Shown piece by piece: positions 1 through 64,000 of a stretch of 64,000 bases of DNA. Source of the stretch: Bacteriovoracaceae bacterium (GTDB lineage: Bacteria > Bdellovibrionota > Bacteriovoracia > Bacteriovoracales > Bacteriovoracaceae); the NCBI GenBank assembly GCA_048270185.1, contig JBLWTJ010000001.1:384001-448000 (forward strand). The letters are read 5' to 3'. The translations under genes and the position numbers were made by a program. Within the stretch, counting starts at the first letter, position 1, and each line of letters opens with the position of its first letter. The notes beneath the pieces are model-generated. The model had not been told where the DNA came from. It saw only the letters and a list, made by a program, of their open reading frames with translations, and ran no database searches.

Positions 1-107
1 CTATAGCAGTCGAAGTCGGGCACGCATCCGTTAAGACGACAGGAGAATACGATAAGAGACGTAACAAAATTAAGGAATCTCCGGCCTTAAAATTAACTTG
101 GGAATAG
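1..107 (+). CDS. Tyrosine recombinase/integrase, C-terminal fragment (gene truncated by window start)
   Basis: Frame from nt 3 reads IAVEVGHASVKTTGEYDKRRNKIKESPALKLTWE*. VGHASVKTTGEY matches the box II motif LGHxxxxTTxxY with the catalytic Tyr. Confidence 0.75.
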   Translation, partial: IAVEVGHASVKTTGEYDKRRNKIKESPALKLTWE

Positions 108-145
108 TCCTTTTCAATTTTTCGCACCCCATCGTTCGTATATTT

Positions 146-194
146 TCACAAGATATAGTAGTGTCAAAAATTCTACGGCCACAATATATGGTAT
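146..194 (+). promoter_or_regulatory. Tandem NrdR boxes
   Basis: TCACAAGATATAGTAG (146-161) and CCACAATATATGGTAT (179-194) match acaCwAtATaTwGtg. They are 33 bp apart and lie upstream of the RNR genes. Confidence 0.8.
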
Positions 195-544
195 GAACAC
201 ATTGTGTTAGAACCTACTGAAACATCTAAAAAATAGATGACAGAAATTTTTAGATGAAGATTTTATACCAGAAAAAATATTGTCAATTCTTCTCTACACC
301 CTATTTAATAGGCTCTAAAAGACATACCTAGACAATCAAGTATAAAAATTAGAGTTCGTCTCAAATAAAGTCAAAAACATGACCCGTTGTATGTTGATAT
401 TAAACCCTCAAAACCATAAACTAAATTAGAACACACAACACGATCTTTTATTAATACAAAACTAAGAGATTTATATTTATTTTTATGAAACTTAAGTTGC
501 ATGCAAACGCACACACGGCATTTGTAAAAGTTAAGGAGGAACTT

Positions 545-1516
545 GTGACTTCAAAAATTCTAGCAGAAAACGAAGACAGATTTGTTCTATTTCCAATTGA
601 ATACAATTCAATCTGGGAAATGTACAAAAGACACATGGCGGTTTTTTGGACAGCTGAAGAAATCGACTTAGAACAGGACTTAACAGACTGGGAAAAGTTA
701 AATGACAACGAGAGACACTTTATCACTCACGTTCTTGCATTCTTTGCAGCAAGTGACGGGATTGTTAATGAAAACCTAGCGGTACGTTTTTACAATGACG
801 TTCAAAACCCAGAAGCGAGATGCTTCTACGGTTTCCAAATCGCAATGGAAAATATTCACTCGGAAACTTACTCACTTCTTATCGACACTTACGTAAAAGA
901 CGCTAAAGAAAAAGATCGTCTTTTCCACGCTGTTGATCACTTTGAGCCAGTTAAGAAAAAAGCTGATTGGGCCATGAAGTGGTTACGTGCAAAAAATACG
1001 TTTGCCGAAAGACTAGTAGCATTTGCAGCGATCGAAGGTATCTTCTTCTCTGGATCTTTCTGCTCTATTTTCTGGTTAAAGAAAAGAGGGCTTATGCCAG
1101 GTCTATGTACTTCTAACGAGTTTATTTCTCGTGATGAAGGGCTACACTGTGAATTTGCAGTACTTCTACACTCACTACTTGATAAAGAAGAGCAATGTAC
1201 GAAGGAAACAATTAAATCAATTATCACTGAAGCAGTAGAAATTGAAAAAGAATTCATCTCTGAAGCAATTCCTGTTTCACTAATTGGTATGAATGCTGAT
1301 CTAATGAAACAATATATTGAATTCGTAGCAGACTTCTGGATGCAACAATTCGGACTTGAAACTCACTATGGTTCAGCAAACCCATTTGACTGGATGGAGC
1401 TAATCTCACTAGAAGGAAAGACTAACTTCTTTGAAAAGAGAGTTTCTGAATACCAAAGACCAGGTATTCTTTCAGAAAAATCAGAAAACACTTTCACATT
1501 AGACGCGGAGTTTTAA
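545..1516 (+). CDS. nrdB: Ribonucleotide reductase class Ia beta (R2) subunit
   Basis: Motifs [46 protein letters not shown] and NFFEKRV. Start is probably GTG 545 after RBS AAGGAGG (ORF track starts at 485). Confidence 0.97.
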
Positions 1517-1519
1517 GAA

Positions 1520-3889
1520 ATGTACGTACAAACGAGAAGTGGCGAAAGAGAGCCAATTAAATTTGATAAAATTACAGATAGAATTTCATCTCTAGCATTT
1601 GGTTTAGAGAATTCAGTTGACCCAACTTTAATTACTCAAAAAGTAATCGAAGGTATCTACGATGGGATTACAACTTCAGAACTAGATAACCTAGCAGCTG
1701 AAACAGCAGCATACCTTGCAACAAAGCACCCAGACTACAATGTACTTGCTGGACGTATTGCCGTTTCAAACCTTCACAAAGAAACAAAGGGATGTTTTTC
1801 TGAGAATGTTAAAGAAATGTATCACTACGTAAACGCTGCAACAGGTGAGCACGCTCCTCTTGTTTCAAAAGAACTTTATGAAACAGTAATGGAGAATGCT
1901 GAACTATTAGACAAAACTCTAGTTGATAAGCGTGACTTTGGTTATGACTACTTTGGTTTCAAAACTCTTCAAAGATCATACCTTCTAAAAATGGATGGAA
2001 AAATCGTTGAGAGACCAGGTCAAATGCTACTAAGAGTATCTGTTGGTATGCACATGAACGATATGGAAGCGGCCATTGAGACATATAACTTAATGAGTGA
2101 GAAATACTTCACACACGCAACTCCTACACTATTTAACTCGGGAACAAATAAGCCACAAATGTCTTCTTGTTTCCTACTAACAATGAAAGATGATTCAATT
2201 GATGGAATCTACGATACTCTAAAGCAAACTGCTCTTATTTCTCAGTCTGCAGGAGGGATCGGTCTATCAATCCACAATATCCGCGCAAAAGGTTCATTTA
2301 TTAAAGGAACTAACGGTACTTCGAACGGAATCGTTCCAATGCTTAAAGTCTTCAACGATACTGCTCGCTACGTAGATCAAGGAGGTGGAAAGCGTAAAGG
2401 TTCATTTGCAGTTTATCTTGAGCCATGGCACGCAGATATTTTTGAATTCTTAGAAATGAAGAAGAACACTGGTAAGGATGAGCAAAGAGCGCGTGACCTT
2501 TTCTACGCACTTTGGACTCCAGACTTATTCATGAAACGTGTTGAAGAAGATAAAGAGTGGTCATTATTTTGTCCACACGAGTGTCCAGGTTTAGCTGACT
2601 GTTATGGTGCTGAATTTGAGGCCCTATACACTCGCTATGAAAAAGAAGGTAAGGCCAAGAAAACAATTCGTGCCCAAGACCTTTGGTTTGCAGTTCTTGA
2701 ATCTCAAACTGAAACTGGTTCTCCTTATATGCTTTACAAGGATGCGGCCAATGAGAAGTCAAACCAGAAGAACCTTGGAACAATCAAGTCTTCTAACCTT
2801 TGTACTGAAATTCTTGAATACACAGCTCCAGATGAAGTTGCAGTTTGTAACTTAGCTTCTGTTGCTCTTAATAAATTTGTAAAGACTGATGCTGAAGGTA
2901 ATCCAACTTACGATCATGACCACCTTTACAAAGTTGTCTACAGAATGACGAAGAACCTTAACAGAGTAATTGATGTTAACTACTACCCAGTACCAGAAGC
3001 GCGTAACTCAAATATGAGACACCGTCCAGTTGGTCTTGGAGTACAAGGTCTTCAAGATACATTCTTTATGATGAGACTTCCATTTGAGTCTGAAGCTGCA
3101 CTTAAGCTAAACAACGATATCTTCGAAACGATCTACTTTGCAGCTGTTACTGCTTCAAAGGATCAAGCAAAGATCGACGGGCCATACTCAACTTATGAAG
3201 GTTCACCAATTTCACAAGGACAACTTCAGTTTGATATGTGGGGACACACTGAGCACTCAGGACGTTGGGACTGGGATGCACTAAAAGCGGAAATCAAAGA
3301 GCACGGGGTAAGAAACTCTCTTCTTGTTGCTCCAATGCCAACTGCTTCGACATCTCAAATTCTTGGAAATAACGAGTGTTTTGAACCGATTACATCAAAT
3401 ATCTATGTAAGACGTGTTCTTTCAGGTGAATTTGCAGTTGTTAATAAGTACTTAGTTCGCGACCTAATTGATCGTGGCGTGTGGGATGACAATATGAGAA
3501 ATGAAATCATTGCTAATAATGGTTCAATTCAATCAATTGAAAGAGTTCCAGAAGACTTAAAAGCACTATACAAAACTGTATGGGAAGTTAAACAAAAATC
3601 AGTAATTGATATGTCAGCAGGCCGCGGGCCTTATATTGACCAAGGTCAATCACTAAATATCCACATGGAAAACCCTAACTTCGGTAAACTTTCTTCAATG
3701 CACTTCTATGCTTGGAAGAAAGGACTTAAGACAGGAATGTACTATCTACGCTCACGTGCTGCAGTTAACGCTGTTCAGTTCACAGTTAAGAACGAAGAGA
3801 AGAAAACTCCTGAGCAACTTGAGCAAGAAGCGGCAGCAATGGTTTGTTCAATCGAGAACCCAGAAGATTGCCAAATGTGTGGAAGCTAG
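1520..3889 (+). CDS. nrdA: Ribonucleotide reductase class Ia alpha (R1) subunit with ATP cone
   Basis: N-terminal ATP cone, [34 protein letters not shown] and a C-terminal CxxC. Confidence 0.98.
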
Positions 3890-3947
3890 GCCAAGAGCTT
3901 AGACAAAAATTAAAATAACGGTCCATGAAAGTGGCCCGATGCTAGAA

Positions 3948-3993
3948 GAAGGCCCAAGCGACGATTGATTGTCCCTTGGGTCTTCCTTTTTTT
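3948..3993 (+). terminator. Intrinsic terminator after nrdA
   Basis: GAAGGCCCAAGCGAC...GTCCCTTGGGTCTTC imperfect hairpin followed by a T7 run. Confidence 0.7.
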
Positions 3994-4003
3994 AGGTAAC
4001 AGC

Positions 4004-4672: not shown

Positions 4673-4680
4673 ATGGCCCA
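4661..4680. terminator. Hairpin between convergent genes
   Basis: TGGGCCA-AATAAA-TGGCCCA inverted repeat. Confidence 0.5.
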
Positions 4681-4689
4681 AAGATAATA

Positions 4690-5007: not shown

Positions 5008-5025
5008 AAACTCTCCTTTTTGTTC

Positions 5026-6402: not shown

Positions 6403-6530
6403 TGTTATTATTTACAACAAATTAGCGCGTGAAGGCTTATTTTTGAAAAGAAGAAATCGACCGTCCAAGAACTGAACAGTCGCTTGTTTTATCGATAACT
6501 TAGACGGATTTGCAAGTCGTTTTGAAGTCC

Positions 6531-12364: not shown

Positions 12365-12395
12365 AAAAGGCCTCTTTAAAAGAGGCCTTTTTTTT
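12363..12395. terminator. Bidirectional intrinsic terminator
   Basis: AAAAAAGGCCTCTTT-AA-AAGAGGCCTTTTTTTT between convergent genes. Confidence 0.9.
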
Positions 12396-35332: not shown

Positions 35333-36373
35333 TTATCTTATAATATCACTCATGTAAACCTTTAAATTCTCAAGTAAACGGGCCTCGATTTGTCTAATTC
35401 GCTCTCTTGAGACACCATAGTCGTCTGCAACGGCCTGTAGTGAGCGCGGGGCATCATTTAAAAGCCTCTCACGAAAGATTTCTTTATCTCTGGGCTTTAG
35501 GCCTTGAATAAATTGATCCAGGTTATCTTGTAATAATTTCAGAGACTGCTTGAACTCGACATCCAGCGTAAAGTCGTTATCACCTGGTAGCAAATCTCCA
35601 ACAGTTGCTGTTGAGTCACCAATTGGCGTATCGATACTAAACTCAGTACCACCCTCACCTAAGCGCATATCCATCAAGGCAACGGCCTTCTCACTAACAT
35701 CTAGGTTTTGGGCAATAGTCTTGTGATCCGGTTTAATCCCCTGTGCCTCAAGACGTTCTTTTTCACGCATAAGATTATAAAAGAGCTTCTTTTGCTCATT
35801 TGTTGAGCCAAGCTTAACAAGTTTAAAGTTATCTAAAATGAACTTAAGGATATATGACTTGATCCACCAAGAAGCATAATATGATAATTTTGCACCCTTA
35901 TCTGGCTCAAATAATGAGACGGCCTTCATAAGGCCAATATTCCCCTCTTGAATAAGATCCATTACATTAGCATGGGCGCTCTTGTAATCCATGGCAATCT
36001 TCACAACAAGGCGTAGATTTGAAACAACTAGCTTCTTGGCAAGTTCGATATCACCAGTTTCACGAAATTGTTTAACGAGGGCCTTTTCTTGTTCAGGCGA
36101 TAGTAGTTCATAGCGAGAGATTTCTTTTAAGTATTGATTAAGCTTATTATCACTACGACTAGGAACTGGAAGTTTAGAAGATATGGCCGGAAGAGTTTCA
36201 CTGATTAATTCAATTTCTTCTTCAAGAGTAAGACCAGAGTCAATCTTAGGAGAGATATCAACATAGTCCTCTACATCTTCGATATCATCTGAACTTGTCT
36301 CTTCGACAGATGGAAGAATTTCGTAATCGAATTCCTTTGAATCTTTAATATCTTTACTATTAGATTTTGCCAT
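35333..36373 (-). CDS. rpoH: Sigma-70 family factor, RpoH (sigma32) type, with acidic N-terminal extension
   Basis: SNLRLVVKIA, DLIQEGNIGLMKAV, RpoH-box-like QKKLFYNL and SRERIRQIE. Confidence 0.85.
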   Translation of the reverse strand: MAKSNSKDIKDSKEFDYEILPSVEETSSDDIEDVEDYVDISPKIDSGLTLEEEIELISETLPAISSKLPVPSRSDNKLNQYLKEISRYELLSPEQEKALVKQFRETGDIELAKKLVVSNLRLVVKIAMDYKSAHANVMDLIQEGNIGLMKAVSLFEPDKGAKLSYYASWWIKSYILKFILDNFKLVKLGSTNEQKKLFYNLMREKERLEAQGIKPDHKTIAQNLDVSEKAVALMDMRLGEGGTEFSIDTPIGDSTATVGDLLPGDNDFTLDVEFKQSLKLLQDNLDQFIQGLKPRDKEIFRERLLNDAPRSLQAVADDYGVSRERIRQIEARLLENLKVYMSDIIR

Positions 36374-36385
36374 TAAGGCTATTTA

Positions 36386-38080
36386 TCATTTTTTGGACTT
36401 CTCGGCCATAGAATCAATATTATTTAGTACCTCTAAGGACTTAATTTCCTTAGCATCTCGTTCAGAAAGCTCTGATATAACACGCTTATTGCGGATTGCC
36501 ACAAGCGCAAAAGGAGCAATTCGTATATTGACTCTAATACTTACTTGGCGAGATTTTGGCAGAATGAGCTCTTCAAGTGTGTCAAATTGTCTAAGAACTT
36601 CCTTCATCATTACAGTCAATAGATCGGAGTTAACGGAATAAGTGGCAAGAAGATCTTTAACCTTTTCATAATCTTTAGCAATATATGCATTAAGTCTAGT
36701 TTTGAGTAACTCAATACTATCCTCGTCATTAGCATTGACGGCAATTTTATATTGTTCAAAGATCCAATCGAGATCCTTGGCCGGAAATTTAATATCAAAA
36801 TTTAATGTGATCATATTCTCATCATTAGTGGCTCGATCAAACTCACCATTGACAACATTGAAGTTAATTTGTGGACGGCCCTCTGCTCTAATAAAACGAT
36901 CGGAGGCTAAGCGATCAACTTGCATTTCAAGTGCATCTTCATACATGACATAATCCACTCGTCTTGCAAGAAGATCCTTTGCCCAAAAATTCCAAAGCCC
37001 ATCGTTTGAGATAGAGATATATCTTTTAATCATCTCAGAACTCTGGGTCCAAACGTTAAAATCAGGAATACGAGTCAGTAGTGCAATGAACTGTCCTATA
37101 AGACGTTCTTCTTGTTTATCAAATTGTTTTAAATGATCCTTAAAATTCTTATCTATATTTGGAGAATAGCTTTGTGTGGCCGTTTGAAAATTTCGACAAT
37201 AGATAGTAGATAAATCGTAGGCCATATTAGATGAACCAATTGGTTTTGCTATTTCTTGAGTAAAATTACTCAAGGTCTTAGGACGACAAATTTGATTCTT
37301 ACAAAGTGCTACCTTCTGATCTTTTAGCTTGTCATTAAAAGTGTGTGTTTCAAGTCCAGTCATTTCTCTAATAATGTAGCTCATAATAACTGGCGATCTT
37401 AAGAAAGGTGCCATCTTTCGTAGAAATTGAACTTGGCCACCCCATGAGCAAGCATAACTAAAAACACCTGTTGTATAATAGAGTTCATTAACAAGAACTT
37501 CATTTTCACTTTGTACTTCAGATACTTTTTCCGTAAATAGCTTCTTTGATATGTCTTGAGGAACTGAAATCGCTTCTTGCGAATCGAAATCTTGTTTAAA
37601 GAGATACTTCAAAAGTCGATGACTATAGAGAGTTGTATTTTGTGAACAACTACCGATTAGGCCATCAACCAAATTATCGTATTGTTCGCTATCAAATTGT
37701 AGTTTCTTCGCATAGGTGGCAATAGCACTAATCGAATAATTCATCATTTTATATTGAAGAGTTGCAATCATTGAGCGTATAAACTCATCTCTTTCAAAGG
37801 CATTTTTAAAATTAACAGGTGCTTTATTTTCACGACAAAAATAATCAAGATTTTCTGATTCGAGATAAAACTTACGATAATTATCAAGTAAGGTAAAATT
37901 CTCAGGAGTATTTTCAACGCGGGATTTTGAAATAGAAAACTTTAAATTATCAAAGATTTTATTTCCCTGTCTCTCAAGTCCTGAAACGAACTGAGACTGG
38001 GCACAGACACTTGTTGCGACAATAGTTATTAAGGTAAAAAGAAGTGGCCTAAATCCGTTTATACCCACATTGTTTCCCAT
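36386..38080 (-). CDS. Secreted hypothetical protein
   Basis: 564-aa ORF with a signal-like N-terminus and several Cys; ends 12 nt before rpoH. Confidence 0.75.
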   Translation of the reverse strand: MGNNVGINGFRPLLFTLITIVATSVCAQSQFVSGLERQGNKIFDNLKFSISKSRVENTPENFTLLDNYRKFYLESENLDYFCRENKAPVNFKNAFERDEFIRSMIATLQYKMMNYSISAIATYAKKLQFDSEQYDNLVDGLIGSCSQNTTLYSHRLLKYLFKQDFDSQEAISVPQDISKKLFTEKVSEVQSENEVLVNELYYTTGVFSYACSWGGQVQFLRKMAPFLRSPVIMSYIIREMTGLETHTFNDKLKDQKVALCKNQICRPKTLSNFTQEIAKPIGSSNMAYDLSTIYCRNFQTATQSYSPNIDKNFKDHLKQFDKQEERLIGQFIALLTRIPDFNVWTQSSEMIKRYISISNDGLWNFWAKDLLARRVDYVMYEDALEMQVDRLASDRFIRAEGRPQINFNVVNGEFDRATNDENMITLNFDIKFPAKDLDWIFEQYKIAVNANDEDSIELLKTRLNAYIAKDYEKVKDLLATYSVNSDLLTVMMKEVLRQFDTLEELILPKSRQVSIRVNIRIAPFALVAIRNKRVISELSERDAKEIKSLEVLNNIDSMAEKSKK

Positions 38081-38149: not shown

Positions 38150-39583
38150 ATGAACATAAGAAGAATAAATCTTGCCCTATTCTTAATTTTGATCGCTTTT
38201 AGCTCGCTAGCAAGGCCACTTAATCGCGCGACTAAAACAGAGCTTGATCCTCCATATAATATCTATGGAGAAATTGAAGCTGATTATTTTAATAATGGAC
38301 TTCAAGTAGATAAGCGTGAAACATTTCTTAACCAGTTAAAAATAGCAAAATCGCTACTCATCGATGGCCACTCAAAAGATGCAATTCTAGTATTGAATAA
38401 GTTAATACAAACAACTAAGAGCTACGATAAACGACTTATCATTAATCGATTTTTGGCCTTAGCTTATTTTTCTATTTCAGATATTAATAAGAGTCGAGAA
38501 ATATTGGATTCAATTCCGGATACGGCAACATGGCTCTACCAGAATTGTAGCTTAAAAATTATCTCGACTTTATCACTACCAAAAACACAAAATGATAAAA
38601 TTAATAAAACATTCAACGACTGTATTAATCACTACCGAGTACGAGGTGATAATATTAGAGATACTTGGTTAAGATTAGTTCTTGAAAGAAAAATCAAAGG
38701 CCACGTTGTTAATTATAAAGTAAGAGATTTATTTGCTTCTAATAATTTAGAAACCATCAATACCATTTTAAAATATGGGATTTACTTTGATGAAAATAAA
38801 CAAATATTAAAATTCTACGACTTAATTCCTGTAGAACTATATGCTGATGAACAACTAAGAACTCTCGTAGCAACAAATCTCTATAATAACGCAGAATTCG
38901 ACAGGGCCTTAAAACTAGTCAATAGCTTAAATAATACAAATGCCAATAATATAAAAGGAATTGAAGAAGTAAAAAAAGAAAACTATAAGACAGCTTATTC
39001 TCACTTCATTTCAAATCTATTAACTAAACCATATTCAATCAATGCAAATATTAGCATTCTTGCTTCAGCGATACTCAGTAATAACTACAAACAGGCGAGA
39101 ACTGCACTATCAAAAATTCCTGTATCCTATGAACTTAGACGAGAAAAACAACTACTTCGCATTAATATTCTCCTTAAAGAAGGAAAATTTAAAGAGGCCA
39201 CATACCTAATGAACAATCTTGATATTGACTATAGTAAGAAGCTTCCTTATGAAGCTGCTATTCTAAGTACATATTTGAAATTATTAAAAGATGACGACGA
39301 ATGGAAAAGCTTAAGTGACTCATCTTGCTTAAGTAAGAACGTCATTAGTTGCTGGCTACATATGCAATCTAAAGTATGGCAAAGCTATCCTACTCAAATA
39401 GTTAATAGTGATGAAAAGATGGAAGCTAAGACAATTCAATCAAGACTTAATTCCATGATTACTAAAAAAGAACATAAAGAATTTAATGAGCCGACACTTA
39501 TCTATCAAAAAGATATATATGAATTAGACCTCGTCAGCTATCCTGAACTTAAAAAGAGTATCGATAGCCAAAGTTTACAATAG
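38150..39583 (+). CDS. Secreted TPR-like helical repeat protein
   Basis: Signal peptide and repeated helical patterns (LALAYF, AEFDRAL, NYKTAY, GKFKEA). Confidence 0.65.
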   Translation: MNIRRINLALFLILIAFSSLARPLNRATKTELDPPYNIYGEIEADYFNNGLQVDKRETFLNQLKIAKSLLIDGHSKDAILVLNKLIQTTKSYDKRLIINRFLALAYFSISDINKSREILDSIPDTATWLYQNCSLKIISTLSLPKTQNDKINKTFNDCINHYRVRGDNIRDTWLRLVLERKIKGHVVNYKVRDLFASNNLETINTILKYGIYFDENKQILKFYDLIPVELYADEQLRTLVATNLYNNAEFDRALKLVNSLNNTNANNIKGIEEVKKENYKTAYSHFISNLLTKPYSINANISILASAILSNNYKQARTALSKIPVSYELRREKQLLRINILLKEGKFKEATYLMNNLDIDYSKKLPYEAAILSTYLKLLKDDDEWKSLSDSSCLSKNVISCWLHMQSKVWQSYPTQIVNSDEKMEAKTIQSRLNSMITKKEHKEFNEPTLIYQKDIYELDLVSYPELKKSIDSQSLQ

Positions 39584-51037: not shown

Positions 51038-52462
51038 ATGTCAGGTGACGACAAGAAAAATGACCTAACTCGAATCGAAGACTTATCTGAGTTTCTTCAC
51101 CAAGGTGATGATGACTTAGATAAGCTTCTTGCTGACCTTGACAATGAAGAGGAAGAAGCTTCTGCGCCTCAAGGCTTTGACGACGATGAAGAAGACAGCT
51201 ACGAAGACGAGGCACAGGTTGAGTTGACGTCATTTGACTATGAAACTCCAGCAGAAAGTGATGAAGGAGGTTTCGACAATAGTTCCGAAGGGGACTTTGA
51301 TGAAGACTCCGCAGAAGACTCCGAAGAAGACTTCACCAACAACTTCCCACAAGACTCACAAGGCTATGACGCAGACGAAGACCTAGACGAAGGCTTCGAA
51401 AACGATTTCGAAGGCAGTTACGAAGACAACGACGAAAATGACTTCGAAGGAAACTACGAAGACGATCCCAGCGCAGACTGGCAAGACGAAGAAGAAGATC
51501 ATCTGGTAGAACCTCTGGCAGCCCCTCTGGCAGACGACGATAACTCTTCTTTCTCATCAAATGATTTCGAGGCAGAGACAGAAGCCGAAATTGAACTTTC
51601 TCATGAACTCGATGAACAGACAAAAGACGATACTCCCCACGACTCCGGCCCAGATATTGCCGAAGAAACTGATGATAGGACATACTCTCAACCAGAACCT
51701 ACAATTACGATTAATGACAATATAAAAGAAGAGATCGTTGCTGCTAAGGCACAATCACCTTCACAACAAGACTTTAATGAAGTCAGAGATTTTGCAACGA
51801 ACTCAACTTTTGGAAAAGTTGCTATTGGCGGTAACCCTCCATTCTCACTCCTACTCCAGGGCATCAAATCGGAAGAATACGACGAGAGTATTCTTGCGGT
51901 TTTAAATGAAGTTGGATTATTGGCCGGAAACGAAGACCTCTATCGTACAAGTTTAGAAACAGGTCAGCTTCTTATTGCACAAATTGGCGAATACAGTGCA
52001 ATCTATTTAGCAGGAAAGCTTCGTCGCTATTGCCACACAATAAAAATGGGCCTAGCTCACGAAATCCACCAAAGTAGTAATTATGACCACTCTGATCAAA
52101 GAGGTCTAACAAGTGCAAGTTCGGCCACGCAAAATAAATCTCAGGCCTTTGAGAAGACAGACTTAGTCTTTAAGAAAGAAGAAATAATTCTAAGCTCATC
52201 TCACTTTATCCCAGGCTATCTTGTCACTCATAGCCTTGGTCCAATGCAGATCAATGATAAAATTGATGCCAACGAGTTTGATGATATCAGTTCAATTAAC
52301 CTCATTGATTATTTTGAAGATACAATGAGAGAAGAAGCCTTTAAAAAAGGCGCCAATGCCATCACTTCAATTCATTTCACAATTAACAAACAAGAAATGA
52401 ATGATACAAATTACATCCTAATACTCGCTCACGGTGACTACGTCACTCTACGTGAAAATTAA
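51038..52462 (+). CDS. Hypothetical protein with a long acidic low-complexity region and a possible YbjQ-like C-terminus
   Basis: About 200-aa D/E-rich segment. C-terminal IPGY...MREEAFKKGANAI..AHGD resembles YbjQ. Confidence 0.7.
   Translation: MSGDDKKNDLTRIEDLSEFLHQGDDDLDKLLADLDNEEEEASAPQGFDDDEEDSYEDEAQVELTSFDYETPAESDEGGFDNSSEGDFDEDSAEDSEEDFTNNFPQDSQGYDADEDLDEGFENDFEGSYEDNDENDFEGNYEDDPSADWQDEEEDHLVEPLAAPLADDDNSSFSSNDFEAETEAEIELSHELDEQTKDDTPHDSGPDIAEETDDRTYSQPEPTITINDNIKEEIVAAKAQSPSQQDFNEVRDFATNSTFGKVAIGGNPPFSLLLQGIKSEEYDESILAVLNEVGLLAGNEDLYRTSLETGQLLIAQIGEYSAIYLAGKLRRYCHTIKMGLAHEIHQSSNYDHSDQRGLTSASSATQNKSQAFEKTDLVFKKEEIILSSSHFIPGYLVTHSLGPMQINDKIDANEFDDISSINLIDYFEDTMREEAFKKGANAITSIHFTINKQEMNDTNYILILAHGDYVTLREN
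51398..51463 (+). repeat. Imperfect 36-nt tandem repeat encoding ENDFEG(S/N)YED
   Basis: GAAAACGATTTCGAAGGCAGTTACGAAGAC at 51398 and GAAAATGACTTCGAAGGAAACTACGAAGAC at 51434. Confidence 0.7.
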
Positions 52463-52479: not shown

Positions 52480-53799
52480 ATGATTAATAAGCTAAGTGAA
52501 GCTCGCGAATTTTACAGTACAATAATTATTGGCGGTGGTATCGTCGGCGCAGGTGTCTTTAGGGACCTAAGTCTACATGATATAGACACTCTCATTATTG
52601 ATAAGAAAGATTTTGCATCACAAACTAGCTCTAAGAGCTCTAAGATGTTACATGGGGGAATTCGCTACCTCGAAAACTTTGACTTTCCACTCGTTTGGGA
52701 GGCTTTACACGAAAAAAATCTTTGGCTAAAACTTGCTCCTCACTTATGCTTTGAGGAAAAATTCTATCTTCCTATTTACTCTGATTCGATTCGTCCAAAA
52801 TGGATGATTCGTATCGGGCTATTCTTATATGACCTACTCTCTAGTTTTCAAAACTCTCCATATGAAATGAAGTCAAAGAATGAAACCCTGGCAGTAAATA
52901 AAGATCTAAAAGAGCAAGATTTAAGAGGAAGTGGTGTCTACCACGATGCCATAGTTGATGATCGAAGACTTACGATTGAAGTAATCCGCGATGGAGCAAT
53001 GAATTCTAATTGTCATGCCCTAAATCACGTTGGAGTCGAAGATTATGTGTTCCTAGAGGATGGGAGCGTTAGAGTTGACTTAAAAGATGAAATTGATGGA
53101 ACTATTAAAACCGTATATTGCCACGACCTCGTCTTTGCTACTGGCCCATTTACAGACCAGCTATTAGCTAAGAGTAATCAGATCCATTGGCGTCCTCAAC
53201 TTCTTCCATCAAGAGGAAGTCATATCTGGATTGCAAAGGATCGCTTAAAGATTGATACGGCAATTCTACTAACTCCAAATGATGGACGTGTAATCTTTGT
53301 CATCCCGCAGGCCGATCGTATTCTTGTTGGAACAACTGAGGCCAAGATTGAAGGTGACTACTTTGATCTTGAGGCCACACCAGAAGAGATCACTTACCTT
53401 CTGGCCAATATCAACCAATACTTCCCAAAAGCACAGATCAAAGAAGAAGATATAATTTCGTCATTTGCAGGGATTAGACCACTTGTTAAAGACGATACAA
53501 CAGCGACTCTTGGCAAGACGGCCAGAGTGCACAAGTATTTTCAACCTTTAAGAAATTGTCATGTTCTACTTGGCGGAAAGTACACTACTTTTAGAACTAT
53601 GGCCCAAGATGTAACAAGAACTATTGTTCACAAGCATAAGAAGGCCTATATACACACAAAAGCGGCACAAGAGTTTCAATTTAAAACTCGCTTTAACCCA
53701 TTTTCTGCCAAAGAAATTACAGCGGATCAAGAAAGAGAGATCCGCCAATATGAATTTATACGAAGTGAAGATGATTTTTTAAGACGTGTTAAACGTTAG
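52480..53799 (+). CDS. glpD: FAD-dependent glycerol-3-phosphate dehydrogenase/oxidase
   Basis: IIGGGIVG, TSSKSSKMLHGGIRYL, AGIRPL and GGKYTTFR. Confidence 0.9.
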   Translation: MINKLSEAREFYSTIIIGGGIVGAGVFRDLSLHDIDTLIIDKKDFASQTSSKSSKMLHGGIRYLENFDFPLVWEALHEKNLWLKLAPHLCFEEKFYLPIYSDSIRPKWMIRIGLFLYDLLSSFQNSPYEMKSKNETLAVNKDLKEQDLRGSGVYHDAIVDDRRLTIEVIRDGAMNSNCHALNHVGVEDYVFLEDGSVRVDLKDEIDGTIKTVYCHDLVFATGPFTDQLLAKSNQIHWRPQLLPSRGSHIWIAKDRLKIDTAILLTPNDGRVIFVIPQADRILVGTTEAKIEGDYFDLEATPEEITYLLANINQYFPKAQIKEEDIISSFAGIRPLVKDDTTATLGKTARVHKYFQPLRNCHVLLGGKYTTFRTMAQDVTRTIVHKHKKAYIHTKAAQEFQFKTRFNPFSAKEITADQEREIRQYEFIRSEDDFLRRVKR

Positions 53800-53811
53800 C
53801 TTATATGCGCA

Positions 53812-54927
53812 CTAAAAACGCATATAAGCACCAGCGATGGCCCTAAATCCACTTAGACTATATGTATTATCAATTGTTGCTGATGAGCCTTCAATTGAGA
53901 ATGTAGAAGATGTCGAAAAGTAGTCACCCTTTGCATAGAATCCAAAACCTGAATCCATTGTATACTTAAGGCCACCACCAAAATTCATATAAGTTCCGGC
54001 CCCTGATAAATTCTCTAAGTTGCTTGAAGTACTATTTTCAGGCATATCGGTAAGGGATGCCATCGAAATTCCAAAACCAACTTCAACAAAAGGTATGAAT
54101 CGATTAGTTGCCATCGGGTTAGTGATATGGAAGTTTACCGCACCACCAAAATCAAGTGATGAAGTTGTCGATTCTCTTACACCATTTGCTCCACTTGAAT
54201 ATCCAATAACGGCCTTAAGAGAAAATTTTTGTAGGAAGCTTTGTGACTTTGGAAAGAGTAATTCAAACTCTCCATTAAAGCCAAGCCCACTCATTTCAGC
54301 GTTAGATTGATCTACATCTGTTTCATAGGTTCCGCTTAACATATTCAAACCAGTTGAGATATTGAGGGCCATATTCTTATCGAGAATCTTACTTGGAGTT
54401 GGACGTTTCTCGGCCTTATGATTACTTGAAAAGCTTGTCGTTTTAATTGCTTCGTATTCATCTTGTTCAACAGGAATATCACTAACAATTTTAGTTTGTT
54501 CACTTTCACGTCTACGCTCAATATCAACAGGCTCCCCCATTTGTCTGCTATCTTTTGGGTAAGTTGGGGCCAAAGACTTAGAGCGATCATTTGTCACCTT
54601 AACAGGAGAAGCAATTTTTAGGTTCGCTACTTTATCACGGTGAATTTCACTTGGTTTCACAATTCGATAAATACTCCAAACTGATCTGGAAGGAGTAGCA
54701 CGAATAACAACGGCCCTCGCGAAAACACCAGTTGTAATAAAGAATTTAGCGTGATCACCGATTGCAAGACCATCTTCTAATCCACGGTTCATAAGAATTG
54801 TCTTCTTTGTATCCGATGTTTGAAGAATTCTAAAAGTTAACTTCTCATCGATATCCAGAGCATTAGCACTAAATGTTGTCATTAGAAGTGTGATCGTTAA
54901 AATTGTTCTTAGTAAACTTCCTGTCAT
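53812..54927 (-). CDS. Outer-membrane beta-barrel protein with a small N-terminal beta domain
   Basis: Signal peptide, NRGLEDGLAIGD motif and C-terminal strands ending YMRF. Confidence 0.7.
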   Translation of the reverse strand: MTGSLLRTILTITLLMTTFSANALDIDEKLTFRILQTSDTKKTILMNRGLEDGLAIGDHAKFFITTGVFARAVVIRATPSRSVWSIYRIVKPSEIHRDKVANLKIASPVKVTNDRSKSLAPTYPKDSRQMGEPVDIERRRESEQTKIVSDIPVEQDEYEAIKTTSFSSNHKAEKRPTPSKILDKNMALNISTGLNMLSGTYETDVDQSNAEMSGLGFNGEFELLFPKSQSFLQKFSLKAVIGYSSGANGVRESTTSSLDFGGAVNFHITNPMATNRFIPFVEVGFGISMASLTDMPENSTSSNLENLSGAGTYMNFGGGLKYTMDSGFGFYAKGDYFSTSSTFSIEGSSATIDNTYSLSGFRAIAGAYMRF

Positions 54928-54936
54928 AGTAATTCC

Positions 54937-56496
54937 TTAAAAATATACACTTAAACTTGCAATAAATTTTACGTTATTTACTTTCTGATTTAACTCATAA
55001 ATCTGGTCGCCCGAAGCGACTTCGTTTAAAGGAGATAAATTTAGTAACTCATAATTTAGCTTTGCTCCTAGACCAAAACTAAATTGATTTTCCTTTTCAA
55101 AATCTCTAAAAGTAGAGATACGAGTCTTAATACCTAAGCTTAAAGATGGAAGAGCTACCGCTTCATAATCATAAGTATAGGCAGATAGGCTTGGTGAAGT
55201 GACCTCACCAGTACCTCTTTTAAACCCAAAGCCAATATAGGCCAGTAGCTTATTTCGAATATAAGGAGCATTGTAGAAGTAATAATTCACATGAGTTGAA
55301 ATATTAACAAATGTCATGCGTCCATTAATACCACCAAGATCCACATTCAAGTTAGAAGCATCAAGACCAAAGTCAACCGACCACTTACCAAGTGAATGAT
55401 GGGCCCTAATGAGATGAAACTCATAGGCAGCAGCAAGGCCATAACCAAGGTTTTGATGATTAGGATCTGAGTCTGAATAATTGGCCAATAAATTTGACAT
55501 CAGACTTAATTGAATTTCATTACCACTTTCAATTGCAAGAACATTTTCACGTCGATATTTTTCACGGGCAATCCCAGAAGCCTTTAAATAATTAGCTAAT
55601 TGTTTACTATTCATATCGGCCGAGTATAGAGGTCCTTCACGGTCAATGACGGCCTTAGTCGCTTTACTAATTTGATTCTTAGCACGTTCACGTGCAAGAG
55701 TTTTTTCCATTGTATTTGGTATCGATATATTAGAGGCAGATCCAGTTAGGCTAGGGGCCCCTGTATAGTACATTTCCTCATAGCCATCTTGAGCAGCTGA
55801 TATTTTTTCCAGTTGGGCCTGATTTTGAACTCCAATATCTTTTGATAATTCTTGTTCAGAGAGTTCACTAACATCAATTGGTTTCAATTTAGAGTTAATA
55901 TACTTGTACTTTATTCTTCCATCTTTAACGATAATCTCATTACCACTTTTAAGAATTGAATTCTCTGTAACCTCGTAACTATTTAGGTCATTATGTTCTT
56001 CTTTATAATTGAGGTCGTTTTCTGCTCCCTTTTCTTGAACAAGATCGGAAGGAACAACTCCATCAATGGCATAACGGTTATTTCTCATAACACGTTTTGA
56101 TTCATGCCCCTTAATCAAGTAGTGTGGAGTCTTTGTTTTACGCCCTTTAGCAACTATTGATCGGATTTGTAACTTGATATCTTTGCCAGTTTGGAAGTTA
56201 TTACGATTAATTTTATCGCCATTGACCTTTTTAAAATACCAGTGAGAATCACGATCAGAAACTTTTAATAACTCGATAGTTCCAAGGAATAAATAACGAG
56301 GCTTTTCAAGTTCACCATAACGAACGGAAACATCGGCGATGTCACCAGGCTTTAGTCCTGCAAGCTTACCAATATCAAGCTTTATTGTTCGGCCTGACTG
56401 ACTTAGTGCAAGAACTTTTGCATCTTGCATAGACCAAGTCTTCAGTGAAATCAGGGCCATTAAAAGTAACATCACAAATTGTTTATATTTATCCAT
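54937..56496 (-). CDS. Outer-membrane beta-barrel protein, paralogous N-terminal domain
   Basis: Signal peptide from ATG 56496, DIGKLAGLKPGD motif and C-terminus LSVYF. Confidence 0.7.
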   Translation of the reverse strand: MDKYKQFVMLLLMALISLKTWSMQDAKVLALSQSGRTIKLDIGKLAGLKPGDIADVSVRYGELEKPRYLFLGTIELLKVSDRDSHWYFKKVNGDKINRNNFQTGKDIKLQIRSIVAKGRKTKTPHYLIKGHESKRVMRNNRYAIDGVVPSDLVQEKGAENDLNYKEEHNDLNSYEVTENSILKSGNEIIVKDGRIKYKYINSKLKPIDVSELSEQELSKDIGVQNQAQLEKISAAQDGYEEMYYTGAPSLTGSASNISIPNTMEKTLARERAKNQISKATKAVIDREGPLYSADMNSKQLANYLKASGIAREKYRRENVLAIESGNEIQLSLMSNLLANYSDSDPNHQNLGYGLAAAYEFHLIRAHHSLGKWSVDFGLDASNLNVDLGGINGRMTFVNISTHVNYYFYNAPYIRNKLLAYIGFGFKRGTGEVTSPSLSAYTYDYEAVALPSLSLGIKTRISTFRDFEKENQFSFGLGAKLNYELLNLSPLNEVASGDQIYELNQKVNNVKFIASLSVYF

Positions 56497-56598
56497 ATAA
56501 TTAATTATAACGAATGGAAGTATTTGAAACAATATGGTAGAGTATGTATATTTTTATTAAAATTTGCCACGGTGCACCATGAGTGAACGGAGGAAAAA

Positions 56599-57745: not shown

Positions 57746-57753
57746 GATATTTT

Positions 57754-57781
57754 TGTGGCCTAGGTAAGAACTTAGGCCACA
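57754..57781. terminator. Hairpin between convergent genes
   Basis: TGTGGCCTAGGT-AAGA-ACTTAGGCCACA. Confidence 0.65.
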
Positions 57782-59667: not shown

Positions 59668-59695
59668 AATAATAACCCTTAGTGTTTATAAAGAC

Positions 59696-59763
59696 TTATC
59701 GACTAGTAAAAAAGCGAACTTTAACTAACAATTGTATAAAAAAATCAAAGAATAGTCCGATGA
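59696..59763. promoter_or_regulatory. Back-to-back sigma28-type promoters
   Basis: Minus strand: TAAA(59723-20)-N16-GTCGATAA(59703-696). Plus strand: TAAA(59737-40)-N15-TCCGATGA(59756-63). Confidence 0.6.
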
Positions 59764-59771
59764 GCCAAATA

Positions 59772-61502: not shown

Positions 61503-61598
61503 ATTTGACAGACCATTGGCCTTCTTGAAATAATTTTATAAGCAGATCACGGATCGATCTGAAGTAATTCATTTATTTTGACCAGGGAAGGTACAACA

Positions 61599-62423
61599 AT
61601 GAGCAATTCAAGCAATTTCTTTAATTACAATATCCTTAACGTTTCACTCTCAAGACAAACTCGCACTTGCTTTGTAACGGTTGCGAATGATGGACAGTTT
61701 TTCAATACGACAACGTACTTAAATGAATTAGAGAATCTATTTGACTGGCTTACAAATAAAATTGAAATCAACTCTGTTGTCTTTCGCTATAAAGCAGAAA
61801 AAATTGAATTATTTAAGGCAGAAGAATTAAGATTCTTCGATGAAAAGAATCTAGGCTCAACTCTCCAGCAATTAGCTCGTCTTAGCTGGGCCCAAGTACT
61901 TCTTCCTCAAACTATTATTTGGTCTTTTCAAAAAGAGGCCTGCCCATTTAGCCTTGAGCTTGCCATGGGCGGTGATATTCGCTACTGCGCACCTTCATTT
62001 AGTGTGACTTTTAATCAACTCGATAAAGGCATAACTCCAATGGGTGGAATGAATACCCTTACAAATGAAAAAGGTAATAGCGCAAAAATAATGCAATACC
62101 TTCTTTCATCTCAAAGTGTTGGAGCTGATGCACTAATTAGTTCAGGCCTAATCGGGAAAACACTTTATTCAGAAAATGAAATTGAAGATGTTGTCGCAAG
62201 AATTGCAAAGCAATCCCCTACTGCACGCATTCAAACAAAGAGATCATTTAACAACTCTCTCATTAAACAAATGGAAGAAGTTTTCTTAGAAGAAGTTTCA
62301 TTTGCTAACTCAACACTTGCAACAGGCGACTTTAAGAACTACGCAAATCAGAAGGCCTTCATTAATCCTCGTGAATTTGCTAAAGTTTTAAGAGAGACTC
62401 CAACTGTGGCGGAAGCTGTTTAA
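61599..62423 (+). CDS. Divergent enoyl-CoA hydratase/isomerase (crotonase)-fold protein
   Basis: LELAMGGDIRYC, GITP, ADALISSGLI and IAKQSP..KRS. ATG 61599. Confidence 0.65.
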   Translation: MSNSSNFFNYNILNVSLSRQTRTCFVTVANDGQFFNTTTYLNELENLFDWLTNKIEINSVVFRYKAEKIELFKAEELRFFDEKNLGSTLQQLARLSWAQVLLPQTIIWSFQKEACPFSLELAMGGDIRYCAPSFSVTFNQLDKGITPMGGMNTLTNEKGNSAKIMQYLLSSQSVGADALISSGLIGKTLYSENEIEDVVARIAKQSPTARIQTKRSFNNSLIKQMEEVFLEEVSFANSTLATGDFKNYANQKAFINPREFAKVLRETPTVAEAV

Positions 62424-62441
62424 AGTTTATAACGATATATA

Positions 62442-63344
62442 TTAAACAGGTCTAACTTCATGAGCTTGTAGCTCACTAGGTAGGTTTGAAATATCAGATG
62501 CAAGCCCAAGGAGAAAGCCTCCGCCGCCAGCACCGCAAAGCTTTAGATAGAAGCGATCGTTTTCAAGGCCTTCGGCCCAAAGGTCGCGATAGAGAGCAGG
62601 AATCATCGGGTTGAAATGTTCAAATTGAAAGGCGGACAATTCTTTAAACTTATCCCATAGAAGCTCATTATTATCTTCAATATAATACTTGATACATGCA
62701 TCAGAGATTGGTGATAGAACACGGTCACACAGGTAAGCAAAGTCTTTAGAAGAACATTTTTCCATAAATAAGTTAACAAGAGGTTCAGTTCTTCTTGCAC
62801 GTCCTGTATTTAATAGGAAGAGGCCAGGGCCCGCTTTGGCCTGATTGAGACTTACTTGAGAAAGTGATTTTGTATTATCAATTAAAAGTGGAACATTAAG
62901 ATAACTAATTAGAGGATCAACGCCTGAAGAAGAACCGTGAAAATGAGATTCCATTTCTTTGAAGCAATCCTTTAAGAAAGCGATATCATTCTTATGTTCA
63001 TCACTGATGTGAGCATAGCGATCAAAGACTGCAGCACATAGTGCACCAGAGCTTCCAACACCATATCCTTGTGGAATAGTGCTATTAAAGCGTAAACCAC
63101 TAGAGATATCAAAAGAGAAAGATTGGTGATCAAAGTCAAAGCTTAGCTTTCCCTTCTTGTGCTCATTTTTAAGATATTGAGAGAAAGCTGCAAGTTCTGC
63201 ATCGACTCCCGCATTTTGATCAACTGGAAAAGTTAACTTACCTTCAAAAAGACTATAAGGCATTGCCAAAGCCTTTGAAGATCTAATGATTGAATACTCG
63301 CCAAAGAGAAGGATCTTGGCATTAAATGAGTTTTCACTTTCCAT
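62442..63344 (-). CDS. mvk: Mevalonate kinase (GHMP family)
   Basis: KILLFGEY, IPQGYGVGSSGA, HGSSSGVD and KLCGAGGGG; immediately downstream of mvaD. Confidence 0.85.
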   Translation of the reverse strand: MESENSFNAKILLFGEYSIIRSSKALAMPYSLFEGKLTFPVDQNAGVDAELAAFSQYLKNEHKKGKLSFDFDHQSFSFDISSGLRFNSTIPQGYGVGSSGALCAAVFDRYAHISDEHKNDIAFLKDCFKEMESHFHGSSSGVDPLISYLNVPLLIDNTKSLSQVSLNQAKAGPGLFLLNTGRARRTEPLVNLFMEKCSSKDFAYLCDRVLSPISDACIKYYIEDNNELLWDKFKELSAFQFEHFNPMIPALYRDLWAEGLENDRFYLKLCGAGGGGFLLGLASDISNLPSELQAHEVRPV

Positions 63345-64000
63345 ATTCGACACTAACTCCGCTCCCCATTTCATCGTGAATCACAAGGCCTTCATGACAA
63401 AGTGGTTGGATCTCATTGGCAATAAACTCTTTTGCCTTAATTTTATCTTTAGCAAGGTAGAGAATATGAACATTAGGGCCAGCATCAAGAGTAAAACAAA
63501 TTGCTGTCTTTGTTTGTGCTCTAAAGTTTCTAATCTTTTGAATAATGGCCAAAGTATTTGGCTCCATTAGAATAAATGACGGATTTGAATTCATCATTAG
63601 GCCATGAAGTTCTAGCGCCTCTGCTTCAACAATTTGAGCAAAGCTATCAAAATCCCCATTTCCTAGAGCAAAACAAAGCGAATTAAAGTTATTACACGCA
63701 TTCATAAAACGCGTTTTTGCAAATGGATGATCATTCATAAGAGCATGACCAGCAGTTGAGCTTACCGCCTTCTCACTGGCACTAACAATGGCAATTGAAT
63801 CACAAATACCTTCAAAAGACTCGTGAAATGACTTAAGGGGAACAGCATATTCTTGCGAGCTATCCGCAATCGATTTGCCCCAAATGGCCATCTTTGGATA
63901 AAGAGAGCGACTAGCACTTCCTGATCCTAGGCGGGCCATAAATGATGCTTTTTTAAGATAATAATCTTCGTCATGATCTTCATTTGATATTAATTTTTCC
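63334..64000 (-). CDS. mvaD: Diphosphomevalonate decarboxylase (5' end beyond window)
   Basis: ARLGSGSASRS, KAVSSTAGH and FTLDAGPNVH. The frame stays open to the window edge. Confidence 0.93.
   Translation of the reverse strand, partial: EKLISNEDHDEDYYLKKASFMARLGSGSASRSLYPKMAIWGKSIADSSQEYAVPLKSFHESFEGICDSIAIVSASEKAVSSTAGHALMNDHPFAKTRFMNACNNFNSLCFALGNGDFDSFAQIVEAEALELHGLMMNSNPSFILMEPNTLAIIQKIRNFRAQTKTAICFTLDAGPNVHILYLAKDKIKAKEFIANEIQPLCHEGLVIHDEMGSGVSVEYGK

Follow-up and report, generated by a model that had tools for sequence, protein, structure and literature searches.

The tetranucleotide GGCC is strongly over-represented in a genome of the Bacteriovoracaceae, and this excess is gained at the expense of a single neighbour, GGCT/AGCC. 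Within the family the bias occurs together with a conserved C5 methylase, a previously unannotated nuclease of the HinP1I/MspI fold and a MutL without its endonuclease motif. We think it probable that these are components of an independently evolved, Dam/MutH-like methyl-directed repair at GGCC, whose nickase would also correct T:G mismatches at the outer base. The nuclease and the MutL change carry the explanation, and both lie outside the window, i.e. the 64,000-nucleotide stretch of DNA that was analysed (contig C1:384001-448000).

Results

Abundance of GGCC

At a distance of 64-128 kb from the inferred terminus, the window is in the zone of strongest bias. It holds 301 GGCC sites where base composition predicts 76.4 (about 1.2 per kb), a 3.94-fold excess, and with a maximal-order Markov ratio of observed to expected (O/E) of 2.13 GGCC is the top-ranked 4-mer; CCGG, GCGC and CGCG, of the same composition, occur 30, 59 and 56 times. 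All 32 2-kb bins contain GGCC, with 3-16 copies each. The preliminary description of this DNA, made from the letters, had called GGCC highly iterated across the window, which is borne out, and its manual counts for three segments are exact (Table 1). GGCC is also present within the 65 bases examined at all eight hairpin positions that it had cited, twice at six of them and once at two.

The source genome is that of a Halobacteriovorax-like member of the Bacteriovoracaceae and is 95.9% complete. It contains 12,131 GGCC (O/E 3.23 zero-order, 1.97 Markov), again the top 4-mer. Synonymous-codon shuffling within genes, proposed earlier as a check along with the Markov correction, leaves an excess in all three frames (1.76, 1.77 and 3.22), so that O/E stays well above 1 on either count, and intergenic DNA shows the excess as well (Markov O/E 1.71). 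Genome-wide, no base is conserved at positions -8 to +11, in line with the unconserved flanks first reported, and none of the 5- to 8-mer extensions of GGCC stands out. The sites are spaced nearly at random (mean 261 bases, CV 1.14), without a strand skew anchored at GGCC, and GGCC is found in the 5' arm of 72 of 172 terminator-like hairpins. Density increases from origin to terminus in the source genome; in two complete relatives the gradient is not significant (10 samples each; rho 0.43 and 0.25).

Table 1. Positions of the sites, segments and genes discussed in the text. Plain numbers refer to the window and those with a C1 prefix to the contig.
Feature	Position	Strand	Remarks
GGCC sites	1..64000		301, dispersed, in all frames and intergenic, with a matching GGCT/AGCC deficit
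Test stretch of the preliminary description	53000..56500		GGCC 26; CCGG, GCGC and CGCG 1 each
GGCC cluster	35333..36410		9 GGCC
AT-rich gene, 31% GC	38150..39583	+	6 GGCC
Example hairpin	12369..12387		GGCC on both arms
Further hairpins	4663/4675, 17554/17570, 19002/19015, 57757/57775		GGCC on both arms
C5 methylase, 396 aa	C1:546351-547541	+	PF00145, 241 bits; PCQ motif intact; outside window
HinP1I/MspI-fold nuclease, 349 aa	C1:202701-203750	+	Previously unannotated; outside window
MutL without endonuclease motif, 555 aa	C1:1345808-1347475	+	Outside window
MutS, 885-aa frame	C1:1274715-1275275 (domain V match)		PF00488, E 1.5e-78; outside window

Direction of the bias

GGCT/AGCC is strongly depleted (Markov O/E 0.47 in the window and 0.58 in the genome, where it is the lowest 4-mer), whereas GGTC/GACC is hardly depleted (0.90), so that only one of the two neighbour pairs named in the preliminary description follows the expected pattern. 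Codon choice shows the same preference: GCC/(GCC+GCT) at alanine codons is 0.89 when preceded by G and 0.17-0.30 after other bases, and the frequency of G at the third position is 0.84 ahead of GCC versus 0.13-0.25 ahead of GCT, GCA or GCG.

Synonymous changes were followed among three relatives of about 90% identity, where a third-position identity of 76% means multiple hits at some sites. At the outer position of GGCC, C>T occurred in 13 of 1035 opportunities against a background of 1360/12252, that is at 0.11 times the background rate; the matched control HGCC gave 49/393, and polarisation with an outgroup led to the same outcome (6/636). Transversion losses at this position are not reduced (C>A 34/765, 1.5-fold; C>G 12/765, 1.2-fold), and transversion losses overall amount to 1.2-3.4 times background, the strong suppression being confined to one transition. 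At the inner position suppression is only about 2-fold (17/294), compared with about 9-fold at the outer. Gains of GGCC through the outer base are elevated, both for T>C (3/21, p 0.09) and for GGCA/TGCC>GGCC (14/234, 4.7-fold), and neither C of GGCC is a C>T hot spot. The substitution rate does not depend on distance from GGCC, intergenic substitutions were too few for a spectrum test, and and of 30 differences read from the best-covering metagenome run, among 40 listed out of 500, 3 touch GGCC, which is too few to weigh. The suppressed outer C>T together with the unreduced transversion losses points to repair bias rather than to selection for GGCC.

Range of the bias

With the bias index defined as GGCC*AGCT/(AGCC*GGCT), 39 of 40 Bacteriovoracaceae loci exceed 1.5, and all 20 loci of other families fall between 0.44 and 1.69. 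Genomes within one family are not independent, and the pattern therefore counts as one origin. In one family genome, G001 (95% complete), the methylase and a MutL without the motif are present but no nuclease was detected; we had regarded this genome as a natural nuclease knockout from its first locus (index 0.9), an argument that we abandoned because two further loci are biased (2.9 and 3.7). G290, from the sister family, encodes a diverged nuclease along with a short MutL, yet has only 2 GGCC in 22 kb (index 0.44).

A conserved C5 methylase

A C5 family search of the source genome returned a single gene, which is found in 116 of 120 Bacteriovoracaceae genomes. In a comparison across the phylum it occurs in 42/42 family genomes, and the 158 others gave two weak matches (33-38% identity) and no orthologue. 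The preliminary description had suggested an m5C or m4C enzyme; the former is present and conserved, while the m4C and N6 methylase families, PF01555 included, have no member in the source genome. A motif scan recovered further methylase-like proteins there, one of which, on contig C2, resembles what we take to be a type I M subunit. Plasmid homologues share at most 38.5% identity among the 25 matches listed and are uninformative on specificity, and viral contigs encode no relative of methylase or nuclease.

EM-seq of Bacteriovorax sp. ICPB 3264 reports 5mC "in a CpGGCC context", a wording that is ambiguous on the methylated C in the passage concerned (PMC11789641). The target-recognition region of our methylase does not align to M.HaeIII, so that the grounds for assigning it to GGCC are the bias and this sentence about another strain. 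GGCC is the presumed target of methylase and nuclease alike, and we lean towards the outer C as the methylated base.

A nuclease with a restriction-enzyme fold

The nuclease is present in 42/42 family genomes versus 0/158 others in the phylum; in a wider survey it was found in 223 of 236 genomes and 66 of 70 genera, nearly always as a single copy, and only 3 of 146 high-quality genomes are without it. E38, D126 and S139-x-K141 are invariant in 34/34 members, and by the PD-(D/E)xK pattern E38, D126 and K141 are probably catalytic. Its structure model (pLDDT 90) has HinP1I (E 4.9e-4) and MspI (E 0.022) as best folds in Foldseek, and a second fold search likewise placed HinP1I/MspI first (Z 8.7, rmsd 4.1-4.2, 203-205 residues aligned; next row 5.3); MutH was listed by neither. 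The first matches by language-model features (Atlas) are to RE_HaeIII at 0.97, none of 34 nucleases matches Pfam RE_HaeIII (PF09556), and the HaeIII likeness comes solely from those features. The nuclease profile yielded nothing meaningful against solved structures, and at least 400 matches, 316 of them at E<=1e-30, against 1.84 billion proteins.

Mismatch repair genes

MutL is conserved in 60/60 family genomes, and its endonuclease motif is found in none of 30 family proteins (the best 30 of 61 matches); an intact MutS was verified in the source genome only. MutH (PF02976) is lacking from the source genome and from all 42 family genomes, Dam-family methylases (PF02086, E<=1e-30) are absent from the source genome and present in 3/42 of the family, and NucS-like matches occur in only 4/40. 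Among 49 outgroup loci examined, the MutLs found without the motif are all in genomes with a true MutH (8/8), and seven of the eight also have a Dam-family methylase. The vsr gene that the preliminary description proposed to look for (PF03852) did not turn up in the source genome and is present in 2 of 60 family genomes; DUF559 is likewise missing from the source genome. With one UDG and two HhH-GPD matches, the glycosylase complement of the source genome looks ordinary.

Co-folding of MutL with the nuclease gave a weak signal, 0.40 against 0.00 for the best control. Of 157 solved complexes 116 attain this mark, as do 2 of 215 mismatched pairs; among those that attain it, scores of 0.60 or less comprise only 18 of the 157 solved complexes but both of the mismatched pairs. 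The runs share at least 40% of contacts, with a partner pLDDT of at least 77.

Discussion

How could a repair system enrich a word? We propose that the C5 methylase would mark GGCC with 5mC, that the new strand would be briefly unmethylated after replication, and that a nickase with a GGCC-type restriction enzyme as its ancestor, activated by MutS/MutL, would cut this unmethylated strand. As MutL has lost its endonuclease site, the nickase would supply the nick that MutL cannot make. A T:G at the outer base (GGCT opposite GGCC) would be resolved to C by the same methylase and nickase, so that GGCC would seldom decay to GGCT/AGCC and GGCT/AGCC would drift to GGCC, the word excess being a by-product of repair. 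That the nuclease nicks hemimethylated DNA and that MutL activates it are steps that we infer. A plain MutH model does not predict the difference in suppression between outer and inner positions, and both the biased G001 without a detectable nuclease and the nuclease-bearing, GGCC-poor G290 count against the proposal. The lineage-wide methylation/repair origin suggested in the preliminary description is supported by the conserved methylase, the GGCT/AGCC depletion and the repair-type substitution pattern.

Like E. coli Dam/MutH/MutL/MutS, as described in passages of PMC2965676, the proposed system would combine MutS and a MutL without the DQHA(X)2E(X)4E motif with a methylase that stands alone and recognises a 4-bp palindrome, a single-copy nuclease that is encoded elsewhere and descends (here putatively) from restriction enzymes, and sites every few hundred bases. 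It differs in that its mark would be 5mC at GGCC where E. coli has 6mA at GATC, its nuclease belongs to the HinP1I/MspI fold without matching PF02976, the source genome is devoid of Dam-family genes, and the site is enriched 2-4-fold with a strong one-position bias.

Could the nuclease be a Vsr analogue only? The methylase would then modify the outer C and the nuclease nick deamination T:G for short-patch repair, overcorrection enriching GGCC much as Vsr turns CTAGG into CCAGG, with the general repair nick coming from elsewhere or being weak. Such an enzyme fits a bias centred on a single transition at a single position, and it fits "CpGGCC" as the outer C if, as we read the passage of PMC11789641, the calls were made in CpG context. 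Moreover, GGCC is no C>T hot spot despite the rarity of Vsr, so that something else must repair deaminated 5mC, and the weak co-fold cannot discriminate, since Vsr and MutH share a MutL site according to passages of PMC2715241. Dcm/Vsr, as treated there, is also alike in its C5 methylase, enriched site, depleted T-containing neighbour and resolution of T:G to C (here presumed). However, 58 of 60 family genomes are without Vsr, the candidate folds like a type II restriction enzyme and in most cases is encoded far from the methylase, and the bias acts on the outer C of a 4-mer. A purely Vsr-like role would furthermore leave the intact MutS of the source genome and the conserved MutL without a nicking enzyme, in the rest of the phylum loss of the MutL motif accompanies MutH, and the outer position shows an increase in transversion gains as well. 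We regard this alternative as unlikely.

It is more doubtful still that the two genes form a fixed HaeIII-like restriction-modification system directed at phage or prey DNA, in which case the GGCC excess would be a consequence of methylation unrelated to restriction. HaeIII/HinP1I/MspI-type folds read GC-only 4-bp palindromes, and these systems are alike in combining a C5 methylase with a nuclease of the PD-(D/E)xK type. The catalytic residues are intact, PADLOC REase_II matches 15 of 34 nucleases weakly (best E 2.6e-5), and the genes adjoin in G054, G008 and G018. The EM-seq authors interpret their 5mC signal as restriction-modification (passage of PMC11789641), and the sites of such systems may be over-represented, as with CCGG in Helicobacter (passage of PMC4687349). 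But the genes lie 344 kb apart in the source genome, and the nuclease is inside only 8 of 74 methylase loci; both are near-universal in the family, mostly single-copy, and their divergence largely tracks that of MutL (Spearman 0.86 and 0.52 for the two genes, 36 pairs of 9 genomes). GGCC, the presumed site, is not avoided but enriched, by eye the nuclease has no apparent signal peptide, and neither the loss of the MutL motif nor the one-transition bias is accounted for. The role in telling self from prey DNA suggested in the preliminary description found no evidence, the site being enriched and the nuclease apparently not exported by signal peptide.

Selection for GGCC as a binding or regulatory signal, an idea also put forward for HIP1, would assume that methylation serves in the manner of SeqA, histones or promoters, and could draw on the strict conservation of the methylase, the GGCC-bearing hairpins and the rise in density towards the terminus. 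It should suppress all types of loss, whereas a single transition is strongly suppressed, and with near-random spacing and unconserved flanks we find it very improbable. An artefact of codon, codon-pair or trinucleotide usage, which 7439 of 11117 coding sites in a single reading frame might suggest, is refuted by the Markov, shuffling, intergenic and outgroup results.

In the passages of PMC4390886, Elhai's GmeC-dependent repair model for HIP1 shares with our proposal a dispersed palindrome, an orphan methylase (of presumed specificity here) and deviations at the first and last base, and postulates a methyl-C-directed MutH analogue that works as a ratchet. GGCC itself falls outside HIP1, which the preliminary description had cited as background: HIP1 is GCGATCGC or another frequent palindrome of 5-8 bases, whereas GGCC has 4 bases, about one site per 260 bases and unconserved flanks, in a different phylum. 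A candidate nickase and a MutL change are identified here. The passages of PMC11656739, PMC5760749 and PMC12827227 contain nothing on a GGCC system.

It has long been asked by what means bacteria that have no Dam/MutH distinguish the newly made strand from its template. Methyl-directed repair is commonly presented as a single invention of the Gammaproteobacteria, and a version that reads methylated cytosine, with a nuclease taken from another restriction enzyme, would demonstrate convergent evolution. It is conceivable, and we suggest it tentatively, that the last common ancestor of the Bacteriovoracaceae domesticated a GGCC restriction-modification pair, that the MutL endonuclease was lost thereafter, and that a single nickase fills the roles of both MutH and Vsr, the outer C being perhaps the methylated base; this would be a second and independent invention of methyl-directed repair with 5mC in place of 6mA.

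If methyl-directed repair at GGCC is confirmed, the nuclease would join the known nickases as a new one that is strand-specific and senses methylation, and would fill the place of Elhai's postulated methyl-C-directed MutH analogue; the family would provide a working model for how HIP1-like iterated palindromes arise without selection on the word. The three genes in cultured Halobacteriovorax or Bacteriovorax make the model testable, and repair-driven palindrome enrichment could then be addressed directly in culturable bacteria.

Results

The GGCC excess is real and family-wide. The manual counts of the preliminary description were exact on recount. The window (C1:384001-448000) has 301 GGCC where 76 are expected (Markov observed/expected ratio, O/E, 2.13), and no other 4-mer in it is so over-represented; the whole genome (3.35 Mb, 30 contigs) holds 12,131 sites (O/E 3.23 zero-order, 1.97 Markov). 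Depletion of single-mismatch neighbours, which the preliminary description proposed testing, holds genome-wide for AGCC/GGCT, the lowest 4-mer (0.58), and hardly for GACC/GGTC (0.90). In codon context, alanine GCC is used over GCT in 89% of cases following G and in 17-30% following other bases, and a synonymous purine is G in 84% of cases ahead of GCC and in 13-25% ahead of GCT, GCA or GCG. The inner position shifts little (Gly GGC before C 0.43 versus 0.30-0.33 for AGC, TGC and CGC), so the gain of GGCC is at the outer base pair.

Related genomes carry the bias: the index GGCC*AGCT/(AGCC*GGCT) exceeds 1.5 in 39 of 40 family stretches (range 0.9-119) and is 0.44-1.69 in 20 outgroup stretches drawn from the phylum's other families, the stretches being up to 20 kb long and centred on the methylase in the family, mostly not in the outgroup. 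Of 20 samples taken at even intervals along two complete genomes of the family, 19 were biased too. G001 has no detectable nuclease of the type described below, yet retains a weak bias; G290, from a sister family, has a divergent nuclease and few GGCC. The latter genome is reduced and AT-rich (0.9 Mb), with a nuclease of 265 aa and a MutL frame of 449 aa.

Along the chromosome the bias climbs from origin to terminus, near which it is about twice as strong (C1 0-1776 kb, C4 and window; rho -0.51 against distance from the terminus, 72 bins), with the origin placed at C4 near 177 kb from skew and gyrB/gidA/parB motifs and the terminus at C1 near 320 kb. GCC after G drops from 0.94 to 0.83 away from the terminus, whichever of the three codon-bias classes and whichever strand is considered, and a control fraction drops as well (0.30 to 0.23). 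Two complete relatives also peak near the terminus, the trend not being significant.

Some other features were observed. By z-score, the most depleted 5-mer genome-wide is GTCAA/TTGAC (Markov 0.68) and the most depleted 6-mer TGATCA (0.77). One gene of the window contains a repeat-length variable region, where a near-identical metagenome contig carries insertions (3, 12 and 18 bases). Nineteen small contigs have 0-1 GGCC each and no CCGG, and all six inspected carry phage-like genes, judged by eye; these contigs may represent foreign sequence in the bin, or phage avoiding the host's site. A 20-kb locus of the otherwise biased G003 shows no GGCC bias (index 0.6) and a very high GC skew (0.25), and was possibly acquired recently.

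The substitution spectrum was read from ~180 kb aligned among three genomes of one genus (~90% identical; 76% at third positions), with synonymous changes polarised by majority and three identical bases required on each side. Outer C>T changes in GGCC are strongly suppressed (13/1035 opportunities versus 1360/12252 elsewhere, 0.11x; matched HGCC control 49/393), also with a fourth genome as outgroup (6/636 versus 537/6636), and inner C>T changes less so (17/294, 0.52x). Transversion losses are not lowered, with C>A at 1.5x and C>G at 1.2x for the outer position and 2.0x and 3.4x for the inner one. Among gains, outer T>C (3/21, 2.8x, p 0.09) and GGCA/TGCC>GGCC (14/234, 4.7x) are raised. The spectrum as a whole is subject to multiple hits, few gain opportunities and intergenic data too sparse to use. 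This three-genome synonymous spectrum has a 5mC deamination hot spot at neither cytosine of GGCC. Since one transition is suppressed and other losses are not, a process resolving GGCT:GGCC towards C, rather than selection for the word, is suggested.

The methylase that the preliminary description had considered possible has a candidate in a C5 methylase. It matches 116/120 family genomes (best hits 45-89% identity); at E<=1e-40 it occurs in 42/42, with only two matches (33-38%) in 158 other genomes. Halobacteriovorax records are its closest named relatives (88% identity), and most of the wider set belongs to Bacteriovoracaceae. Its recognition region gave no alignment with M.HaeIII. G006 has a second copy (57% identical) next to vsr and an integrase gene, apparently within a mobile element; additional copies also occur in G013, G049, G052 and G060. 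Marinov et al., using EM-seq on Bacteriovorax sp. ICPB 3264, report 5mC 'in a CpGGCC context' (PMC11789641, preprint PMC10634947); the wording is ambiguous as to position, and if the calls are CpG-context, the methylated base would be the last C of GGCC before G, the position protected here. The supplement, as searched, yielded no methylation text.

A second family-specific gene encodes a putative nuclease, found in 42/42 family genomes and 0/158 others, and overall in 223/236 family genomes and 143/146 high-quality genomes of the class. Pfam gave no fitting match over cut-off; the first hits in Atlas, a language-model search, were HaeIII-family restriction enzymes (0.97), and a PADLOC type II REase model matched 15 of 34 members weakly. 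All 34 sequences compared share E38, D126 and S139-x-K141. Foldseek places the predicted model (pLDDT 90) nearest HinP1I (E 4.9e-4) and MspI (0.022), which are monomers acting on GC-only 4-mers. In a second fold search both give Z 8.7 (next match 5.3), at an rmsd of 4.1-4.2 with 203-205 residues aligned. Trees of 22 pairs agree on most genus-level groups, with deeper branching unresolved and one conflict (G085).

Coordinates of features discussed (C, contigs of the genome studied, G000; other G, compared genomes; L, compared loci; f, families)
Feature	Location	Remarks
HinP1I/MspI-fold nuclease	C1:202701-203750	349 aa; 344 kb from methylase in G000
C5 methylase	C1:546351-547541	single C5 gene in G000
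Second methylase copy with vsr and integrase	L034:7039-11730	G006
Motif-less MutL with MutH	L174-L180, L184, L262-L269	G124, G132, G153, G165, G177, G209, G230 (f5); G224 (f18)
Sister-family loci	L290, L295, L296	G290
Low-index locus	L271 (G003:C1:360001-380000)	
Gene with insertions	window 51038-52462	variable at window 51301-51487
GGCC-poor contigs	C6-C8, C10-C12, C14-C16, C18-C20, C23-C28, C30	

MutS is intact in G000 and MutL is present in 60/60 family genomes. The MutL C-terminal profile is faint in the family (23/42, best E about 1e-7) and found in 155/158 others, mostly strongly. Its endonuclease motif DQHA(X)2E(X)4E is described as supplying the nick when MutH is lacking (PMC2965676). 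This motif is absent from all 30 family MutLs examined (best 30 of 61 hits); it is present in the 30 top-scoring outgroup MutLs and in 10 of 19 chosen mainly among weaker scores. One of the nine negatives is a mis-picked fragment; the eight true ones all lie in genomes with genuine MutH, seven of them also with a Dam-family methylase; in this phylum motif loss therefore accompanies a separate strand nuclease. From its gene content, this f5/f18 group appears to carry a Dam/MutH-type repair system outside Gammaproteobacteria. MutH occurs in 19/158 outgroup genomes and 0/42 family genomes, NucS in 4/40 of the family (weak matches), and vsr, which the preliminary description had brought into play, in only 2/60. 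Judged by sequence, then, Bacteriovoracaceae combine motif loss, no MutH, almost no Vsr and little NucS with one family-specific, restriction-type nuclease. A MutL-nuclease co-fold gave weak support (0.40 versus 0.00 for the best control, with 40% or more of contacts agreeing and a partner pLDDT of 77 or above), at a mark reached by 116/157 solved complexes and 2/215 mismatched pairs, with 18/157 solved complexes and both mismatches at 0.60 or under.

Discussion

What maintains the excess? We consider it probable that the methylase marks GGCC and that MutS/MutL switch on the nuclease to nick the new strand while it is unmethylated. Where GGCT lies opposite methylated GGCC, its strand would also be cut, and T replaced by C. 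Were the outer C methylated, the nuclease would additionally do Vsr's job on deaminated 5mC; were it the inner C, the GGCT strand would stay unmethylated and open to cutting, and a GGCC newly made in error could become methylated and win. Such a ratchet was put forward by Elhai for HIP1 (PMC4390886).

A Vsr-like role alone, with no part in strand-directed repair, is unlikely. Less likely still is a fixed restriction system, or the marking of self against prey DNA suggested earlier. Restriction-modification sites can be over-represented, as CCGG is in Helicobacter (PMC4687349), and Marinov et al. judge their 5mC signal probably restriction-modification (PMC11789641 and PMC10634947); the methylase's neighbours are mostly housekeeping-type genes (53/74 and 48/74 loci, some duplicated), and the nuclease lies inside 8/74 methylase loci, adjoining the methylase in G054, G008 and G018. 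Selection for GGCC as a signal seems quite improbable, because it would lower every type of loss and transversion losses are not lowered. A codon artefact is scarcely credible, since the excess survives within-gene synonymous shuffling in all frames (1.76, 1.77 and 3.22, the third with GGCT 0.32 and AGCC 0.28; genes on C1-C5 among 3108 of our own ORF calls) and in intergenic DNA (Markov 1.71).

In the literature covered, which excludes most subscription journals, we found no GGCC enrichment, MutL motif loss or MutH analogue described for Bacteriovoracaceae. With methylase-marked GGCC as the probable strand signal, the GGCC system of this family would work like Dam/MutH and Vsr, but belongs to neither.
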